Notes under the pieces: model-generated
What the model saw: the letters and a program-made list of their open reading frames with translations, nothing else
What the model was told of the DNA's origin: nothing
Databases searched by the model: none
Translations under genes and position numbers: made by a program
Source of the DNA: a virus
Virus genome (UHGV): UHGV-0247634
Length of the DNA stretch: 14,261 bases
Strand: one strand, 5' to 3'
Shown: positions 5 to 7,432 of the stretch, piece after piece
Position numbering within the stretch: the first letter of the stretch is position 1
Layout: every line of letters begins with the position of its first letter

Positions 5-280
5 ATGTTAAGTAACCTTCCCGGATTGCTGAATGTGGCGTTATGCACGGTTATCGTGCTGACGCTCTTTTTTTATCGTCGTCGTGACTCCAGACACAAA
101 CCGCTGATGTCATGGCTGGCCTGGCTGCTGATGCTGCTGTATGCCTTTGCGCCCCTCAGCTATCTGTGTGGTCGCCCGTTAGCAACGGGCTGGCTGGAAG
201 TGTTTTTTAACCTGCTGTTCTGCGTGCTGGTGATACGCGCACGCGGGAACGTCACAAAAATCTTTCCATTGTTGAGGTGA
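5..280 (+). CDS. putative holin (three predicted TM segments); N-terminus may extend beyond window start
   Basis: 91-aa ORF with three hydrophobic stretches (LPGLLNVALCTVIVLTLFFY, LMSWLAWLLMLLYAFAPL, WLEVFFNLLFCVLVI) separated by short basic loops. Stop TGA 278-280 lies in the SD/start region of the downstream peptidase gene, the usual holin-endolysin arrangement. Only 4 nt upstream are visible, so the start cannot be verified. Confidence 0.55.
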   Translation: MLSNLPGLLNVALCTVIVLTLFFYRRRDSRHKPLMSWLAWLLMLLYAFAPLSYLCGRPLATGWLEVFFNLLFCVLVIRARGNVTKIFPLLR

Positions 281-285
281 ATATG

Positions 286-663
286 ATGCCGGGTAAATTC
301 AGATTCAGCCGTCGCAGTGAAAAAAATCTGGAGGGCGTCAAACCACAGCTGGTTGCTGTCGTTCGCCGTGCGCTGGAGCTGACGGAGGTTGATTTTGGTA
401 TCACGGAAGGTCTGCGCAGTAAGTATCGCCAGAAACAGCTGGTAGCGGCAGGGAAAAGCCAGACCATGAACAGCCGCCACCTTACAGGTGATGCGGTGGA
501 TGTTGTGGCCTACATTGGCAGCCAGGTGTCATGGGACTGGCCTCTGTACGAGAAAATCGCGCAGGCATTTAAGCAGGCTGCCGCAGAGCTGGGAACTGCC
601 ATCGAATGGGGCGGGGACTGGAAAACACTGAAAGACGGGCCTCACTTTCAGTTGAAACGCTGA
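286..663 (+). CDS. endolysin, L-alanyl-D-glutamate peptidase (peptidase M15 / VanY-like, T5-endolysin type)
   Basis: Motifs SRHLTGDAVD and GPHFQL match the Zn-binding H-x-x-G-x-A-x-D and C-terminal His motifs of M15 endolysins as I recall them. Start ambiguous: GTG 277, ATG 283 or ATG 286; SD GAGGT at 274-278 favours ATG 286. Positioned between a putative holin and a lipoprotein. Confidence 0.85.
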   Translation: MPGKFRFSRRSEKNLEGVKPQLVAVVRRALELTEVDFGITEGLRSKYRQKQLVAAGKSQTMNSRHLTGDAVDVVAYIGSQVSWDWPLYEKIAQAFKQAAAELGTAIEWGGDWKTLKDGPHFQLKR

Positions 664-677
664 TAACCAGGTGTGTT

Positions 678-860
678 ATGAGCAGAAAACACTGGACACA
701 CAGAATGCCGCGAACGGCGGCGAAATGGGCACTGGTAGCGATACTGGTGCCTTTTTTCCTGGTGGGATGCGTCAGCCTGGATAAGGCGCGCCAGCTTTTC
801 GATACAGCTTCTCAGGTCTGTGAAATTGTCGACGGTGTCCGGCAGTGTATGCAGAACTGA
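678..860 (+). CDS. small secreted lipoprotein, possible o-spanin-like lysis accessory protein
   Basis: 60-aa ORF with a basic n-region (MSRKHWTHRMPRTAAK), hydrophobic h-region (WALVAILVPFFLVG) and lipobox L-V-G-C. Predicted mature peptide is about 30 aa with three Cys. Lies immediately downstream of the endolysin. The ORF-track version from 606 overlaps the endolysin and has no N-terminal signal, so ATG 678 is preferred. Confidence 0.55.
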   Translation: MSRKHWTHRMPRTAAKWALVAILVPFFLVGCVSLDKARQLFDTASQVCEIVDGVRQCMQN

Positions 861-892
861 TCGCCTGATAATTGTTTTACTAAGGAGAAATG

Positions 893-1081
893 ATGGAATC
901 GCCAATTATGAAATATTTCAATTATGAGCATCTTCCGACTTCGTTAAAGGAAGTGAGTAAGCCAATTGGTGATCTGGCAAGAGTAATGGATGAATCTTTG
1001 CCAGACGGTCCGGAAAAGTCGGCTGGGTTACGTAAATTGCTTGAAGCAAAAGATGCTCTGGTGCGAGCGAAACTGGGTTAA
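893..1081 (+). CDS. hypothetical small soluble protein (moron candidate)
   Basis: 62-aa ORF (MESPIMKYFNYEHLP...) with SD AGGAG at 883-887 and ATG 893. About 43% GC by hand count, visibly lower than flanking late genes. No TM segment; C-terminal amphipathic helix-like stretch (LRKLLEAKDALVRAKLG). Followed by a strong hairpin. No family recognised. Confidence 0.45.
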   Translation: MESPIMKYFNYEHLPTSLKEVSKPIGDLARVMDESLPDGPEKSAGLRKLLEAKDALVRAKLG

Positions 1082-1090
1082 GGCATTACA

Positions 1091-1114
1091 GCAGCCCTTC
1101 AGCCGAGGGGCTGC
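1091..1114. terminator. stem-loop between convergent genes, candidate bidirectional terminator
   Basis: gcagcccttc (1091-1100) pairs with gaggggctgc (1105-1114), a 10-bp stem with one G-U pair and loop agcc. It sits between the stop of the + strand ORF (1081) and the stop of the - strand ORF (1124). No clean U-tract on either side, so termination efficiency is uncertain. Confidence 0.4.
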
Positions 1115-1123
1115 AATAATGCT

Positions 1124-1330
1124 TTAGTTGTCTTTCATAAATCCTTTAATGACCCATCCCACAAGCCTGGTGATGCTGTACACAAACAAGGCAATTATCA
1201 GAGATACAAGGATATCAAACAGTGAGAATCCTTGCGTATCCGTTGTTGAAAATAAAAGACTAAAGATGAACACCAGAATGGCCAACAGAATACCTACCCG
1301 GTGAAAGCCTTTAGAAATCATGTTTTTCAT
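1124..1330 (-). CDS. hypothetical small membrane protein, two predicted TM helices (antisense moron)
   Basis: 68-aa ORF (MKNMISKGFHRVGILLAILVFIFSLLF...DILVSLIIALFVYSITRLVGWVI...) with two hydrophobic helices and a basic C-terminus. SD GGAGGA is 4 nt upstream of the ATG on the - strand. About 38% GC by hand count. It is the only convincing gene on the - strand, in the position where lambda carries the antisense bor moron. Confidence 0.55.
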   Translation of the reverse strand: MKNMISKGFHRVGILLAILVFIFSLLFSTTDTQGFSLFDILVSLIIALFVYSITRLVGWVIKGFMKDN

Positions 1331-1391
1331 TTGTCCTCCATATTTGTTTTTTTAAAGGGTGGGCATTTTAACATCAGAAGGATGAAGTTCT

Positions 1392-1742
1392 ATGCCATCA
1401 CGAATACCCCGCGCCTGCCGTAAGCGTGGATGCGCAGGTACAACCACAGACAGTTCTGGTTACTGCGATAAACATCGTGGTGAAGGATGGGCACAGCACC
1501 AGCGCGGACTGAGCCGCCACCAGCGTGGCTATGGCTCAAAATGGACGGTGATTCGTGCCCGTATTCTGAAGCGCGATAAAGGTCTGTGTCAGTTGTGTCT
1601 GCGTGTCGGTGTGGTGAGCGAGGCGAAAACCGTCGACCACATCATCCCGAAAGCGCATGGCGGGACAGACGCAGACAGCAACCTGCAGAGTCTGTGCTGG
1701 CCCTGCCACAAAGTGAAAACAGCGCGCGAACGAATCAGGTGA
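1392..1742 (+). CDS. HNH endonuclease, terminase-associated type
   Basis: 116-aa ORF with Cys-rich zinc-finger-like pairs (CRKRGC...CDKH, CQLCL, CWPCH) and HNH core DHIIPKAHGG...N...H. Located directly upstream of the putative cos region and terminase genes, as in HK97-like packaging modules. Confidence 0.9.
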   Translation: MPSRIPRACRKRGCAGTTTDSSGYCDKHRGEGWAQHQRGLSRHQRGYGSKWTVIRARILKRDKGLCQLCLRVGVVSEAKTVDHIIPKAHGGTDADSNLQSLCWPCHKVKTARERIR

Positions 1743-1889: not shown

Positions 1890-2372
1890 ATGTCAGGACC
1901 CCCGAAAACCCCGCCACGCCTGCATTTGATACGAGGCAACCCCTCAAAGCGCCCCGTTAAAGACCCAAAAAAAACCGCTAAAAAGGATGAAAAAGGTCTC
2001 CCTAAAATTCCGCAGCATTTAGGGGTGCAGGGGAAGTACTGGTTCAGGCGAATGGCGGAAGAACTGAATGCGGAAGGGATCATTTCTCAGCTTGATGCGC
2101 GTGCACTCGAGTTACTGGTGGAAGCCTACACCGAATACCGGCATCACTGCGAAACACTTGATGCTGAGGGTTATACCTACCGCACGGAAACGCAGAACGG
2201 TGATGTGCTGATTAAGGCACACCCGGCTGCTGCGATGAAAGCGGATGCCTGGAAGCGGATCCGGGCGATGCTTGCAGAGTTTGGTATGTCACCGGCAAGC
2301 CGGGCGAAAGTAAATACCGCCGGACCGGATGATGTTGATCCGCTGGCGGAACTTTTAAAAGCGAGAGACTGA
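1890..2372 (+). CDS. terminase small subunit, P27 family
   Basis: 160-aa ORF. N-terminus MSGPPKTPPRLHLIRGNPSKRPVKDPKK matches the characteristic GRPPKP...L.GNPGKRP signature of P27-family small terminases as I recall it. Stop overlaps the large terminase start (ATGA at 2370-2374). Confidence 0.85.
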   Translation: MSGPPKTPPRLHLIRGNPSKRPVKDPKKTAKKDEKGLPKIPQHLGVQGKYWFRRMAEELNAEGIISQLDARALELLVEAYTEYRHHCETLDAEGYTYRTETQNGDVLIKAHPAAAMKADAWKRIRAMLAEFGMSPASRAKVNTAGPDDVDPLAELLKARD

Positions 2373-4129
2373 TGGCAAAAGTGGCTGACGGGATCCGCTA
2401 CGCCGAACGTGTTGTTGCAGGAGAAATTGTCGCTGGCGAATTTGTCCGTCTGGCCTGCCAGCGTTTTCTTGATGATCTGAAGTACGGCGAAGAGCGGGGG
2501 ATTTATTTCAGTGAACCCCGTGCGCAGCACATCCTGAATTTCTACAAATTTGTGCCCCATGTAAAAGGGGCGCTGGCAGGCCAGCCCATTGAACTGATGG
2601 ACTGGCATGTATTTATCCTCATTAATATTTTTGGTTTTGTCATTCCGCTGGTCAATGAAGAGACCGGGGAAGTTGTCATGCGCAGCGATGGCAGCGGACG
2701 TCCGGTGATGGTGCGCCGGTTCCGGACGGCGTACAACGAAGTCGCCCGTAAAAACGCAAAATCAACCCTGTCATCGGGTATCGGCCTGTATATGACGGGG
2801 GCAGATGGTGAAGGCGGGGCTGAGGTGTATTCAGCTGCAACCACGCGTGACCAGGCCAGAATTGTGTTTGAAGACGCCAAAAATATGGTCAGAAAAGCCC
2901 GGTCGACACTCGGGCGATTGTTTGATTTCAACAAGCTGGCGATTTACCAGGAGCAGAGCGCATCAAAATTTGAACCGCTTTCCTCGGATGCAAACAACCT
3001 GGACGGTCTGAACATCCACTGCGCCATTATTGATGAGCTGCATGCACATAAAACCCGTGATGTGTGGGATGTTCTGGAAACGGCAACCGGTGCCCGTCTG
3101 CAGTCCCTGTTATTTGGTATCACCACGGCAGGCTTTAACAAGGAAGGGATCTGTTACGAGCAGCGTGATTACGCCATTAAGGTATTGCGTGGCTATAACA
3201 GCAACGTGGAGGGCGCGGTAAAAGACGACTCCTACTTTGCGATCATTTACACGCTCGATGAGGGAGATGATCCGTTTGATGAAACGGTCTGGCAGAAAGC
3301 GAATCCCGGCCTGGGCATCTGTAAACGCTGGGATGATCTGCGTCGTCTGGCGAAAAAAGCGAAGGAGCAGGTTTCAGCGCGGGTGAATTTTTTCACGAAA
3401 CACATGAATGTGTGGGTCACTGCCGAATCTGCCTGGATGGACATGATTAAGTGGGAGAAGTGCGAATATATTGCTCCACAGCATGAGCTGAAAACCTATC
3501 CCATGTGGGTCGGCGTCGACCTTGCTCATAAGATTGATATCTGTGCGGCGGCAAAACTCTGGCGAACCGATAACGGACATGTTCATGCTGATTTTAAATT
3601 CTGGCTCCCGGAAGGACGGCTGGAGCGGTGCTCGCGGCAGCAGGCAGAACTTTACCGGAAATGGGCCGAGATGGATAAGCTCATCCTGACGGATGGTGAT
3701 GTTATCGATCATGCTCAGATAAAAAGTGACTTACTGGAATGGATTGGTGGTGAAAACCTGAGGGAGCTGGGATTTGATCCGTGGAGCGCGATGCAGTTCA
3801 GTCTGGCGCTGGCTGAAGAAGGGATACCGCTGGTGGAGGTTCCGCAGACGGTCCGCAATCTGTCAGAGGCCATGAAGGAAACGGAATCACTGGTCTATGC
3901 CGGGCGTTTCCATCACAGCAATCACCCGGTCATGAACTGGATGATGTCTAACGTTACGGTAAAACCGGACAAAAACGACAATATCTTCCCGAACAAATCC
4001 ACGCCGGAAGCCAAAATCGACGGTCCTGTTGCGATGTTTACAGCAATGAGCCGGATGCTGGTCAATGGCGGTGAACCGGAGCCGGATCTGTCTGAGCATC
4101 TGGTCAGCGTTGGTATCCGCTCGCTTTAA
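2372..4129 (+). CDS. terminase large subunit (ATPase plus nuclease)
   Basis: 585-aa ORF immediately after the small terminase. Walker B-like hhhhDE ([10 protein letters not shown]) in the N-terminal half and an acidic RNase H-like nuclease motif ([12 protein letters not shown]) in the C-terminal half. Size and position typical of TerL. Confidence 0.93.
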
Positions 4130-4323: not shown

Positions 4324-5564
4324 TGTTTTTCCAGGGGCTTTTTCAACGCAAAAATAACACTCCCGTTACAACACCCGGGATGCTTGCGGAAGAGCTGGGA
4401 TTGTCATACGACACCTATACCGGAAAGCGGATCAGCAGTCAGCGGGCCATGCGGCTGACGGCGGTTTATTCCTGCGTCAGGGTGCTGGCGGAGTCTGTTG
4501 GTATGCTGCCCTGCAGTCTCTACAAAATCACCGGCACCCTTAAAACACGCGCGGTGGATGAACGACTGCATAAGCTGATTTCGGCAAAACCCAATGGCTA
4601 CATGACGCCGCAGGAATTCTGGGAACTGGTCATTGTCTGCCTGTGTCTGCGGGGGAATTTTTACGCCTACAAGGTGAAGGCGCTGGGGGAAGTTGTGGAG
4701 CTTCTTCCGATAGATCCGGGCTGTGTGGAACCGAAGCTGAACAGCCAGTGGCAGCCGGTTTATCAGGTGACGTTTCCGGATGGCTCCGTGGATGTGCTGA
4801 CCCAGAATGAAATCTGGCATGTGCGCACTCTGACGCTGGACGGACTGGTCGGGCTGAATCCCATTGCGTATGCGCGTGAGGCCATTTCACTGGCAGCGGC
4901 AACTGAGGAGCACGGCGCCAGGTTGTTTGGTAACGGCGCTGTGACATCCGGTGTGTTGCGTACGGATCAACAACTTTCTGATCAGGCTTATGCGCGTATC
5001 AAAAAGGACTTTGAGGAACGGCATGTCGGGCTGGGAAATTCTCATCGTCCGATGATTCTGGAAATGGGGCTGGACTGGAAAACGGTGGCACTGAATGCCG
5101 AGGACAGCCAGTTCCTGGAAACCCGCAAGTTTCAGCTGGAAGAAATCTGTCGCCTGTTCCGCGTGCCGCTGCATATGGTGCAGAACACCGATCGCGCCAC
5201 CTTCAACAATATTGAAGAGCTGGGGCTTGGTTTCATTAACTATTCCCTTGTGCCGTATCTGACCCGTATTGAACAGCGGATCAATACAGGGCTGGTCAGG
5301 GAGAGCAAGCAGGGGAAGTTTTACGCCAAATTTAATGCCGGAGCATTGTTGCGTGGCGACATGAAATCCCGCTTTGAAGCGTATGCCACGGGGATCAACT
5401 GGGGGATTTATTCCCCTAATGACTGCCGTGATCTGGAAGATATGAATCCCCGACCGGGCGGTGATGTGTATCTGACACCGATGAACATGACCACCAGTCC
5501 CTCTGCTGGCGATGACAACGGTAAGAAAAAGGAGAGTGGAGATGCAGACAAAACAGCGTCTTGA
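4323..5564 (+). CDS. portal protein, HK97 family
   Basis: 413-aa ORF directly downstream of the large terminase and upstream of the prohead protease; SD GGAGGT precedes the ATG. Size and gene order match HK97-type portal proteins. Confidence 0.88.
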   Translation: MFFQGLFQRKNNTPVTTPGMLAEELGLSYDTYTGKRISSQRAMRLTAVYSCVRVLAESVGMLPCSLYKITGTLKTRAVDERLHKLISAKPNGYMTPQEFWELVIVCLCLRGNFYAYKVKALGEVVELLPIDPGCVEPKLNSQWQPVYQVTFPDGSVDVLTQNEIWHVRTLTLDGLVGLNPIAYAREAISLAAATEEHGARLFGNGAVTSGVLRTDQQLSDQAYARIKKDFEERHVGLGNSHRPMILEMGLDWKTVALNAEDSQFLETRKFQLEEICRLFRVPLHMVQNTDRATFNNIEELGLGFINYSLVPYLTRIEQRINTGLVRESKQGKFYAKFNAGALLRGDMKSRFEAYATGINWGIYSPNDCRDLEDMNPRPGGDVYLTPMNMTTSPSAGDDNGKKKESGDADKTAS

Positions 5565-6192
5565 TATACCGCTGAACCTGAAATCCGTCAGTGATTCCGG
5601 GGAATTTGAAGGTTACGGTTCTGTTTTTGGTGTTAAGGACAGCCACGATGATGTGGTGGTCCCCGGAGCCTTTACCACAACACTCCAGAAATGGAGCGAA
5701 AAAAAGGCGCTGCCTGCGTTGCTCTGGCAGCACCGCATGGATGAGCCCATCGGTGTGTACACCGAAATGAAAGAAGACGATGTCGGGCTTTATGTCAGGG
5801 GGCGATTACTCGTTGATGATGATCCCCTGGCAAAACGTGCACATGCCCATATGAAGGCCGGTTCTTTAACCGGCCTTTCTATTGGCTACATCCTGAAAGA
5901 CTGGGAGTACGACCGTGAAAAAGGGGTATTCCTGCTGAAAGAGATCGACCTGTGGGAGGTCAGTCTGGTGACGTTTCCTTCCAATGATGAGGCACGCATC
6001 AGCGATGTGAAAAATGCGCTGGCGCGTGGGGAGATCCCTGATCAGAAAATTATTGAGCGAGTCCTGCGCGATGTTGGACTCTCGCGAACCCAGGCCAAAG
6101 CATTCATGGCCGGGGGATATGGCGCTTTATCCCTGCGTGATGCTGAGGATGTGGATGCCGCACTGAATGCACTGAAAAATCTTAAATTTTAA
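5542..6192 (+). CDS. prohead maturation protease, HK97 family (peptidase S78/U35)
   Basis: N-terminal region MQTKQRLDIPLNLKSVSDSGEFEGYGSVFGVKDSHDDVVVPGAF is characteristic of HK97 gp4-type prohead proteases. Start chosen at ATG 5542 with SD AGGAG at 5531-5535; the ORF-track start at 5512 is an in-frame upstream extension. Overlaps the portal 3' end by 23 nt. Confidence 0.88.
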   Translation: MQTKQRLDIPLNLKSVSDSGEFEGYGSVFGVKDSHDDVVVPGAFTTTLQKWSEKKALPALLWQHRMDEPIGVYTEMKEDDVGLYVRGRLLVDDDPLAKRAHAHMKAGSLTGLSIGYILKDWEYDREKGVFLLKEIDLWEVSLVTFPSNDEARISDVKNALARGEIPDQKIIERVLRDVGLSRTQAKAFMAGGYGALSLRDAEDVDAALNALKNLKF

Positions 6193-6205: not shown

Positions 6206-7432
6206 ATGGCTGTTGATATTAAAGACGTGGAACAGGTCGCGCAGGATTTGCAGCAGAAGTTTGACGATTTTAAGGAAAAAAACGACAAACGCATTGACGC
6301 GATCGAGCAGGAAAAGGGAAAACTTGCCGGAGAAGTGGAAAACCTCAACGAAAAACTGACTGAACTGGAGAACCTGAAAAGCGACCTGGAAAAAGAGCTG
6401 GCAGACATCAAGCGTCCGGCAGGCGGCACGCAAAATAAAGTTGCCAGTGAACACAAAGAAGCGTTTATCGGATTTATGCGCAAGGGGCGTGAAGACGGTC
6501 TGCGTGAGCTTGAGCGTAAGGCGCTGCAGGTGGGCAATGATGAAGATGGTGGTTATGCCATTCCGGAAGAACTGGATCGCACTATTCTGACGCTGCTGAA
6601 AGATGAGGTAGTGATGCGCCAGGAAGCCTCTGTGATCACCCTCGGTGGCTCGGATTATAAAAAACTGGTGAATCTGGGCGGCACAACGTCCGGATGGGTG
6701 GGGGAAACGGATGCACGTCCGGAAACCGCCACCTCAAAACTGGGGCTGATTGAACCCTTTATGGGGGAAATCTACGGCAACCCGCAGGCCACCCAGAAAA
6801 TGCTCGATGACGCTTTCTTCAATGTGGAAGACTGGATCAACAGTGAGCTGGCGCTGGAATTTGCCGAACAGGAAGAAATTGCCTTTACCAGTGGCGACGG
6901 CAGCAAAAAACCAAAAGGTTTTCTGGCTTATGAGTCCACCGATGAAGATGACAAGACCCGTGCGTTTGGCAAACTTCAGCACATTGCTTCCGGTGCGGCT
7001 TCCGGCGTGACTGCCGATGCGATCATTAAACTGATTTACACCCTGCGCAAGGCGCATCGCAGCGGCGCGAAGTTCATGATGAACAACAGCAGCCTGTTTG
7101 CCATTCGTCTGCTGAAGGATAACGACGGAAATTATCTGTGGCGTCCGGGTATTGAGCTGGGTCAGCCTTCTTCTCTGGCAGGGTATGGCATCGTTGAGAA
7201 TGAACAGATGCCGGATATTGCTGCCGATGCAAAAGCCATTGCGTTTGGTAACTTCAAACGTGGCTATACCATCGTTGATCGCATCGGTACCCGTATCCTG
7301 CGCGATCCGTACACCAATAAACCGTTTGTGGGTTTTTATACCACCAAGCGAACCGGCGGTATGCTGGTGGATTCTCAGGCGATTAAGCTGATGAAAATTG
7401 GGGCTGCAACCCGCCAGAAAGCCGCTGCGTAA
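6206..7432 (+). CDS. major capsid protein, HK97 fold, with N-terminal coiled-coil scaffolding (delta) domain
   Basis: 408-aa ORF after the protease. First ~70 residues are charged and heptad-like (DLQQKFDDFKEKNDKRIDAIEQEKGKLAGEVENLNEKLTELENLKSDLEKELADIK), typical of the delta domain in HK97-type capsid proteins; no separate scaffold gene is present. SD AGGAG at 6195-6199. Confidence 0.9.
   Translation: MAVDIKDVEQVAQDLQQKFDDFKEKNDKRIDAIEQEKGKLAGEVENLNEKLTELENLKSDLEKELADIKRPAGGTQNKVASEHKEAFIGFMRKGREDGLRELERKALQVGNDEDGGYAIPEELDRTILTLLKDEVVMRQEASVITLGGSDYKKLVNLGGTTSGWVGETDARPETATSKLGLIEPFMGEIYGNPQATQKMLDDAFFNVEDWINSELALEFAEQEEIAFTSGDGSKKPKGFLAYESTDEDDKTRAFGKLQHIASGAASGVTADAIIKLIYTLRKAHRSGAKFMMNNSSLFAIRLLKDNDGNYLWRPGIELGQPSSLAGYGIVENEQMPDIAADAKAIAFGNFKRGYTIVDRIGTRILRDPYTNKPFVGFYTTKRTGGMLVDSQAIKLMKIGAATRQKAAA

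Follow-up and report, generated by a model that had tools for sequence, protein, structure and literature searches.

A probable moron cassette antisense to the late genes of a lambdoid E. coli prophage encodes a predicted inner-membrane hairpin protein of an unnamed family

Does the minus strand between the lysis and packaging genes of the viral genome UHGV-0247634 carry a real gene, and if so, what could it do for the prophage that holds it? We analysed a stretch of 14,261 nucleotides of this genome (the window), which is a segment of an HK97-like lambdoid E. coli prophage. A preliminary description of the stretch had placed at positions 1124-1391 an antisense, AT-rich moron encoding a 68-residue protein with two transmembrane (TM) segments, possibly serving lysogenic conversion or phage exclusion. 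Here we delimit the cassette and weigh the functions open to its single gene, which by its motifs belongs to an unnamed family of two-TM proteins on mobile elements. The parts of the cassette are as follows (coordinates refer to the window).

1083..1391, minus strand: whole accessory cassette (hairpin, coding sequence, 5' untranslated region and promoter), 309 bp, between the end of the lysis-side genes and the start codon of the HNH gene
1124..1330, minus strand: coding sequence of 68 amino acids, MKNMISKGFHRVGILLAILVFIFSLLFSTTDTQGFSLFDILVSLIIALFVYSITRLVGWVIKGFMKDN, an open reading frame (ORF) with an ATG start; predicted two-helix inner-membrane hairpin
1334..1339, minus strand: Shine-Dalgarno sequence GGAGGA, 3 nt 5' of the ATG (1330-1328), read from the sequence
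1365..1373, minus strand: candidate extended -10 promoter element TGTTAAAAT, with a predicted transcription start near 1357-1358
1387..1392, minus strand: weak -35-like hexamer TAGAAC, a 3/6 match with a 16-nt spacer, overlapping the divergent HNH start codon
1078..1127, no strand assigned: long hairpin, candidate 3'-end/terminator element, core stem 1091-1100 / 1105-1114

The frame at 1124-1330 is almost certainly a genuine gene, judging from the way its alleles diverge. Its length says little, as many spurious ORFs of similar size occur in the window. Between two alleles that are 86% identical as DNA, 18 of the 25 differences fall at codon position 3, and the ratio of non-synonymous to synonymous substitution rates (dN/dS) is 0.15-0.20 (Fisher p ~3e-6, computed on rounded counts of synonymous and non-synonymous differences). 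Against more distant alleles, with 60-68% protein identity, the ratio is 0.22-0.33, which gives a range of 0.15-0.33 over all alleles. A 6-nt indel between alleles keeps the frame.

Low dN/dS is insufficient as proof of the strand, because the plus strand holds a 58-codon mirror ORF (1128-1304) whose wobble positions coincide with those of the small gene, so that it shows the same low values and mimics purifying selection. The real feature could then be this plus-strand frame, or a non-coding spacer holding a chance ORF, and the annotation pipeline PGAP indeed leaves the small-gene homologue unannotated in six genomes. However, the mirror frame is interrupted by 2-4 stops in four homologous loci of 34-47% identity (L030, L015, L031 and L011), while the minus-strand ORF is unbroken in 14 of the 14 loci examined. 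The plus-strand ORF also has a TTG start and no Shine-Dalgarno sequence, which together with the stops rules it out as a gene. In addition, the minus-strand product belongs to a motif-defined family that reaches across distant taxa. From sequence comparison, the plus-strand or chance-ORF explanation is effectively refuted, and we leave it hardly any probability.

Where PGAP does call the gene, its product is labelled a hypothetical protein (WP_033873286.1); the identical protein is recorded on 105 contigs, each time under the same name. The six genomes in which the call is missing are complete E. coli genomes (hits H61-H66; for example L037 3501-3709 and L038 3501-3709). The omission leaves in them a gene-free gap of ~660-940 bp from the last annotated lysis-side gene to the small terminase subunit.

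The limits of the accessory unit can be read from its relatives. Prophages without the small gene align to the window only from the HNH ATG (1392) onwards, and in L026 and L027 window position 865 is joined directly to 1083; the two junctions together define a unit of 309 bp, 1083-1391. The preliminary hand count of about 38% GC, lower than in the flanks, agrees with the measured values: 38.2% in the ORF and 40% over 1082-1391, against 52.1% for the whole window. Along the window, a 200-nt GC profile falls to 0.37-0.41 over 1101-1400, and the homologues have 38-44% GC inside loci of 46-54%. All other minus-strand ORFs of at least 90 amino acids overlap plus-strand genes, so that 1124-1330 is the sole free-standing minus-strand gene of the window, as had been claimed.

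Is this unit accessory? The HNH-terS module (HNH endonuclease and small terminase subunit genes) occurs in 1,025 of 5,426 complete E. coli genomes; the small gene is found in 10 of the 5,426 with a near search and in 16 with a distant one. In four sampled relatives without the gene (L007-L010), Rz ends 42 nt before HNH and nothing lies between. Homologues of 100% down to 42% identity were found on 16 IMG/VR viral contigs and in two Erwinia genomes, every one of them antisense and placed in the interval that separates the lysis cassette from the packaging genes. The same antisense slot is thus kept in Escherichia, Erwinia and IMG/VR prophages, and the proposal of an antisense accessory moron at this junction holds.

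The genes around the slot vary. Neighbouring endolysins are of the M15, GH108, GH19 or T4-lysozyme type, holins are either the 3TM holin_3_7 plus holin_8 or the P21 class II type (holin_2_1), and the packaging genes are HNH+P27, lambda-type Nu1/gpA or Terminase_2. This variety bears on one possible function, in which the small protein would modulate lysis timing like an antiholin, or neutralise a leaky holin in the lysogen. The gene does directly follow the lysis cassette in every enterobacterial prophage locus examined. Class II holins such as the pinholin S21, with ~68-71 residues, two TM domains and both termini in the cytoplasm, have the size and N-in/C-in topology predicted for the small protein. 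But antiholins are normally holin-specific, whereas this gene accompanies unrelated holins and four endolysin types. It lies on the strand opposite to the late lysis operon, has no holin profile match in Pfam or PHROG, and has homologues outside phages as well. The lysis cassette moreover already contains two holin-family genes, Phage_holin_3_7 in the window and holin_8 upstream in relatives. We therefore give a lysis-timing role very little weight.

The cassette also travels as a unit. Two Erwinia prophage backgrounds with flanks that cannot be aligned share a block of ~340 bp at ~99% identity, which comprises ~70 nt upstream (with the promoter), the coding sequence and a hairpin of its own, GGCCCA...TGGGCC. 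In the comparison of the window with L026/L027, the HNH gene and flanks are 97-100% identical, whereas the small gene is 55-83% identical in 30-nt bins, with a synonymous divergence (dS) of ~0.86. By this pattern, the small genes of the window and of L026/L027 are old alleles swapped into near-identical flanks. A moron is an independent transcription unit added to a phage genome (PMC3594210). Extra DNA that is present or absent at one position among close relatives, with deviant GC, candidate control elements and horizontal spread as a unit (the Erwinia block, the mosaic backgrounds and the allele dS) corresponds to that definition, and 1083-1391 is very probably a moron cassette.

In L015 (~5500-5605 and ~6445-6550) and L032, a direct repeat of ~85 bp, made of the HNH 5' end and the upstream terminator-like hairpin AAAAAACCGCCCGTAGGCGGTT, brackets an insert of ~900 bp that holds a 98-aa ORF and the small-gene cassette; the repeat looks like an insertion or duplication scar. 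In the strains STEC306-308 (L003 3937-4185), the prophage is cut off precisely where the small gene ends, so that hyaA has become the direct neighbour of the gene, and the replacement of the last codons of the gene creates an 82-aa variant. Related prophages with a 68%-identical allele of the small gene carry the LT-II enterotoxin A and B genes (L038 476-1621) between the holin and the M15 endolysin. The gaps in L022, L023 and L025 belong to the same observation. L038 is NZ_AP019856.1, from E. coli O8:H8 strain 16F5M1D1, a strain of the LT2 outbreak report PMC6988837.

The preliminary description had likened this slot to that of the lambda bor moron, and the comparison stands. Lambda bor (complement 46459-46752) has the same position and orientation, antisense between the last lysis gene and the packaging end, 31 nt after Rz (which ends at 46427). 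In HK97 itself, the interval from Rz to HNH is occupied by other accessory genes; with the bor slot, they make the lysis-packaging junction an accessory-gene hot spot. The two products differ: Bor, with 97 aa, is a lipoprotein of the outer membrane and gives serum resistance, whereas the small protein is a predicted two-TM inner-membrane protein without a lipobox and without sequence relation to it. Bor is an accessory gene described as expressed from the prophage (PMC3594210).

Could the small gene be expressed in the same way? The candidate extended -10 element TGTTAAAAT is present where it had been announced, and its core TGnTAAAAT recurs in eight loci (L017, L018, L020, L022, L024, L025, L026 and L028). 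TG and TAAAAT are invariant in all eight, with T, C or G as the middle base, while the intergenic bases around them differ; a functional extended -10 would be expected to show such a pattern. As promoter evidence, the -35-like TAGAAC is weak taken alone, and it is also retained in L022-L025, where no HNH gene is adjacent. The Shine-Dalgarno sequence claimed for the gene is there as well: GGAG(G/A)A is kept in L017, L018, L020, L026 and L028, with a weaker GGAAAA in L022-L025. From the predicted start near 1357, the leader would be ~27 nt long and has no significant 5' mRNA structure (z +0.77), so that the Shine-Dalgarno sequence is not stably sequestered.

At the other end of the cassette, the hairpin at 1078-1127 covers the stop codons of both convergent genes, the small gene and the lysis-side orf63. 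Its folding energy is -31.3 kcal/mol on the plus strand and -25.3 kcal/mol on the minus strand, with z ~ -4.9 on both, and 0 of 200 shuffled sequences were as stable. In L002, L004, L018, L026 and L028 its stem is conserved and its loop variable. The hairpin is a candidate 3'-end/terminator element of the cassette. Since a moderately T-rich tail, UUGUCUUU, comes after it on the plus strand, it could have an effect on late transcripts too.

As to the protein, the proposed 68-residue two-TM topology is supported by prediction. The Kyte-Doolittle profile has two hydrophobic segments, at residues ~13-28 and ~35-54, with peaks above 2.5. Lysines plus arginines number 3 in the N-terminal tail, 0 in the loop and 3 in the C-terminal tail (family means 3.2, 0.35 and 1.8). 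AlphaFold2, run on a 54-sequence alignment, places helices at 2-28 and 37-64, with a mean confidence (pLDDT) of 88 and a template-modelling score (pTM) of 0.71. We predict an N-in/C-in helical hairpin in the inner membrane, with a periplasmic loop of 6 residues. The TM helices are not amphipathic.

The protein had been left without a family. This was correct for curated collections, as neither it nor 37 scanned relatives match a Pfam, NCBIfam, PHROG or PADLOC model beyond scattered sub-threshold hits of the TM-bias type; it is nonetheless no orphan. When 1.84 billion cluster representatives were searched exhaustively with a profile, 62 relatives were obtained at E<=1e-3; a word-indexed search with the family profile returned 132 clusters, most members having 66-80 aa. 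In 54 aligned sequences ten residues are 96-100% conserved (G8, F9, H10, R11, G13, Y51, G58, W59, G63 and F64), and R55 is conserved in 70%. They form two motifs, G-F-H-R-x-G before TM1 and Y-x3-(R)-x2-G-W-x-I-x-G-F around and after the end of TM2, both of them present in the window protein. On these motifs, the small gene belongs to an unnamed two-TM 'GFHR...GW-I-GF' family carried by mobile elements. All near-invariant residues are found at the cytoplasmic helix ends; variation is free in the TM cores and in the periplasmic loop, whose length ranges from 5 to ~100 residues. Some members carry extra C-terminal domains, and fusions to TM or soluble domains occur in P0015, P0027, P0037 and P0048. 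Outside prophages, the PLSDB plasmids gave only two weak matches (34% identity), of a distant paralogue type. When the high-GC subgroup was compared with viral contigs, 22 pattern matches were obtained and 0 were confirmed.

Could such a protein be harmful to the cell? A membrane-perturbing effector, that is, a pore-forming or depolarising toxin acting in SLATT-like abortive infection or in an addiction module, would suit a small two-TM hairpin. SLATT_1 is in fact the sole recurrent sub-threshold signal of the family: three distant members score 13-16 bits over the two-TM module in a consistent register, 5 of 37 members match at E<0.1, and one distant member sits after genes for a caspase-like peptidase and NTP_transf_8. 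We treat this similarity as a lead only. The best score, 16.2 bits in a distant member, is far under the cut-off of 41, the window protein itself has no SLATT match, and PADLOC recognises nothing. In the window and at all prophage loci the gene is solitary, with no nucleotide-synthase, sensor or antitoxin partner and no C-terminal extension of the SLATT kind. Type I toxins (Hok/Gef, Ldr, TisB, Ibs) are likewise small hydrophobic membrane proteins on mobile elements, but the window protein has two TM helices and 68 aa and matches none of these families. The generic scan called no plus-strand promoter in 850-1950 and Rfam gave no match at E<=1, so no antisense RNA gene was seen; the leader is short and unstructured and its strong Shine-Dalgarno sequence exposed, unlike the structured leaders of type I toxins. 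A strong ribosome-binding site behind a constitutive-looking promoter would be self-defeating for an unregulated toxin, and the helices lack amphipathicity. An effector of this kind is accordingly quite improbable.

The contexts of distant family members offer further hints. In four independent elements of alpha-proteobacterial type, a member lies beside or within SWIB and/or ParA(CbiA)+RHH genes, at the following neighbourhoods.

L034, 5523-7651: SWIB/ParA/RHH neighbourhood
L041, 6001-7474: SWIB/ParA/RHH neighbourhood
L044, 6550-8513: SWIB/ParA/RHH neighbourhood
L045, 6294-8356: SWIB/ParA/RHH neighbourhood

One of the four has an HTH_3 regulator, in two the neighbourhood is divergent from a long operon of small genes, and resolvase, integrase, Tn3 and HicAB genes are also present in these elements. 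One of their contigs has a '_c' label, which may mark a closed circle. Apart from this neighbourhood, no conserved operon partner was found in non-phage contexts. The association suggests a membrane factor that works with partition or nucleoid-associated genes in the maintenance of the mobile element. However, the window and all enterobacterial carriers are integrated lambdoid prophages without adjacent par genes, and the adjacency may reflect only co-expression in the carrier state. Maintenance is thus very unlikely to be the function of the small protein.

Another context is that of the 34%-identical E. coli relative, which is solitary, has 29% GC and is found, on IncF plasmids or islands, with a fimbrial operon on one side and insertion sequence (IS) elements on the other; type VI secretion system (T6SS) genes are ~5 kb away. 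It would agree with a lysogenic-conversion factor that has nothing to do with phages, either one modulating a host inner-membrane protein (a transporter, sensor kinase or protease) or an orphan immunity protein against membrane-targeting toxins such as microcins and the pore formers of contact-dependent inhibition (CDI) or T6SS. Conserved motifs near the cytoplasm suggest a conserved host or lipid partner, and the fused family members point the same way. Yet none of the neighbourhoods contains a cognate toxin gene or a conserved partner, and no immunity or regulator family is matched; we regard this explanation as unlikely, if less so than a toxin. The remaining distant contexts were uninformative. 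From these positions, we infer that the common denominator is carriage by mobile elements, at sites where expression in the carrier state is to be expected, a logic that applies to conversion and immunity as much as to exclusion.

We now propose the following course of events for the cassette. The extended -10 TGTTAAAAT would serve as a sigma-70 promoter firing against the late operon, the ~27-nt unstructured leader with its strong Shine-Dalgarno sequence would permit translation of the 68-codon gene, and the conserved hairpin would end the transcription unit. Since the gene has its own promoter and is transcribed against the late operon, its expression should be independent of the late genes and their Q-dependent transcription, and would most likely come from the repressed prophage; expression in the lysogen is somewhat probable, with indirect support from the antisense orientation and from the maintenance-operon context of distant members. 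The helical hairpin would then act at the inner membrane and protect the lysogen, most likely by superinfection exclusion, blocking the membrane step of DNA entry by an incoming phage.

The closest functional precedent is gp15 of HK97, a small inner-membrane moron protein that the prophage produces and that stops infection at the step of DNA entry (PMC3594210). The likeness lies in the small inner-membrane moron product and in the HK97-type HNH/P27 terminase genes of the window; in sequence and profile there is no similarity, with no significant PHROG match. The preliminary description had named T4 Imm-like proteins and small membrane toxins as possible relatives. Exclusion proteins of the T4 Imm or Imm_superinfect type do resemble the window protein in small size and membrane hairpin, but the latter has no Pfam match at E<=0.1, and no exclusion family stands among the family-wide matches listed. 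Set beside T4 Imm/Imm_superinfect, HK97 gp15 and P22 SieA, it has the predicted inner-membrane location in common and lacks sequence similarity. By analogy, superinfection exclusion is the most likely specific role, though a tentative one. The explanation as a whole, a moron cassette whose inner-membrane hairpin protects the lysogen by exclusion, comes near to an even chance without reaching it.

A number of observations weigh against this explanation. No similarity to any known exclusion protein, holin or toxin family emerged from the Pfam, PHROG, NCBIfam and PADLOC scans. Foldseek found nothing at E<=0.001 in BFVD and the PDB, only generic helical hairpins, and a profile search of PDB sequences gave nothing below E 0.18. 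The small gene is rare, so that any benefit is not general, and a tblastn search of 50,697 sequenced phage genomes returned no match at E<=1. The conserved residues are on the cytoplasmic side, whereas a DNA-entry blocker might be expected to conserve periplasmic determinants; they fit a conserved host, lipid or self partner better than tail-tip recognition, although the variable periplasmic loop could provide specificity. The ParA/SWIB neighbourhood could point to a maintenance role instead. Finally, the generic promoter/terminator scan called neither the cassette promoter, because it requires at least 4/6 matches in the -35 and TAGAAC has 3/6, nor the hairpin, because its minus-strand transcript has no U-tract.

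A broader form of the exclusion hypothesis is more speculative still. The family might represent a new class of single-gene determinants of exclusion or protection in the carrier state, with an active site formed by the invariant His/Arg/Tyr/Trp cluster on the cytoplasmic membrane face and a hypervariable loop perhaps setting specificity. Such a class would range over prophages, phage-plasmid-like elements and conjugative plasmids across Proteobacteria. We consider this doubtful at present.

What is new here is the definition of the gene and of a family with ten near-invariant residues and no curated model, while small membrane morons at the lysis-packaging junction were already known. Morons of this junction are known to supply genes for lysogenic conversion and against phages. 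Being compact and easy to clone, the cassette is a candidate for a new function of exclusion or membrane protection by a single gene, for which the conserved F9, H10, R11, Y51 and W59 offer clear point mutants. A specialist would not be surprised by one more small membrane moron. The cassette is a worthwhile target, not an exceptional one, for its sharply conserved motifs, for an antisense slot that stays fixed in mosaic phages and for the association with partition genes elsewhere. Should the small protein be inert or merely structural, the genome annotations that omit the gene in some E. coli would still be corrected.

The cassette is flanked in the window by the following genes.

5-280, plus strand: 3TM holin (PF05449, Phage_holin_3_7), Pfam match
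277-663, plus strand: M15 endolysin
678-860, plus strand: small lipoprotein-like ORF, within ORF 606-860
890-1081, plus strand: orf63, phrog_1761/5120, of unknown function
1392-1742, plus strand: HNH endonuclease, HK97-type
1890-2372, plus strand: P27-type small terminase subunit (terS)
2372-4129, plus strand: large terminase subunit

Large plus-strand ORFs continue beyond the terminase genes, up to one of 1,075 aa. In the lysis cassette of the window, no spanin pair of the Rz/Rz1 type was recognised. After the M15 endolysin, the 60-aa product of 678-860 on the plus strand has a signal peptide and a lipobox (FLVGC) and corresponds to phrog_7528, of unknown function. The orf63 region (866-1082) is itself an indel module, missing from L026/L027, where 865 joins 1083; window 873-1071 has no counterpart in L018, and L002, L004 and L005 have a longer gene of 297 nt there. 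On the packaging side, a non-coding gap of 147 nt (1743-1889) separates HNH from the small terminase subunit, at the place where HK97-type phages have cos.

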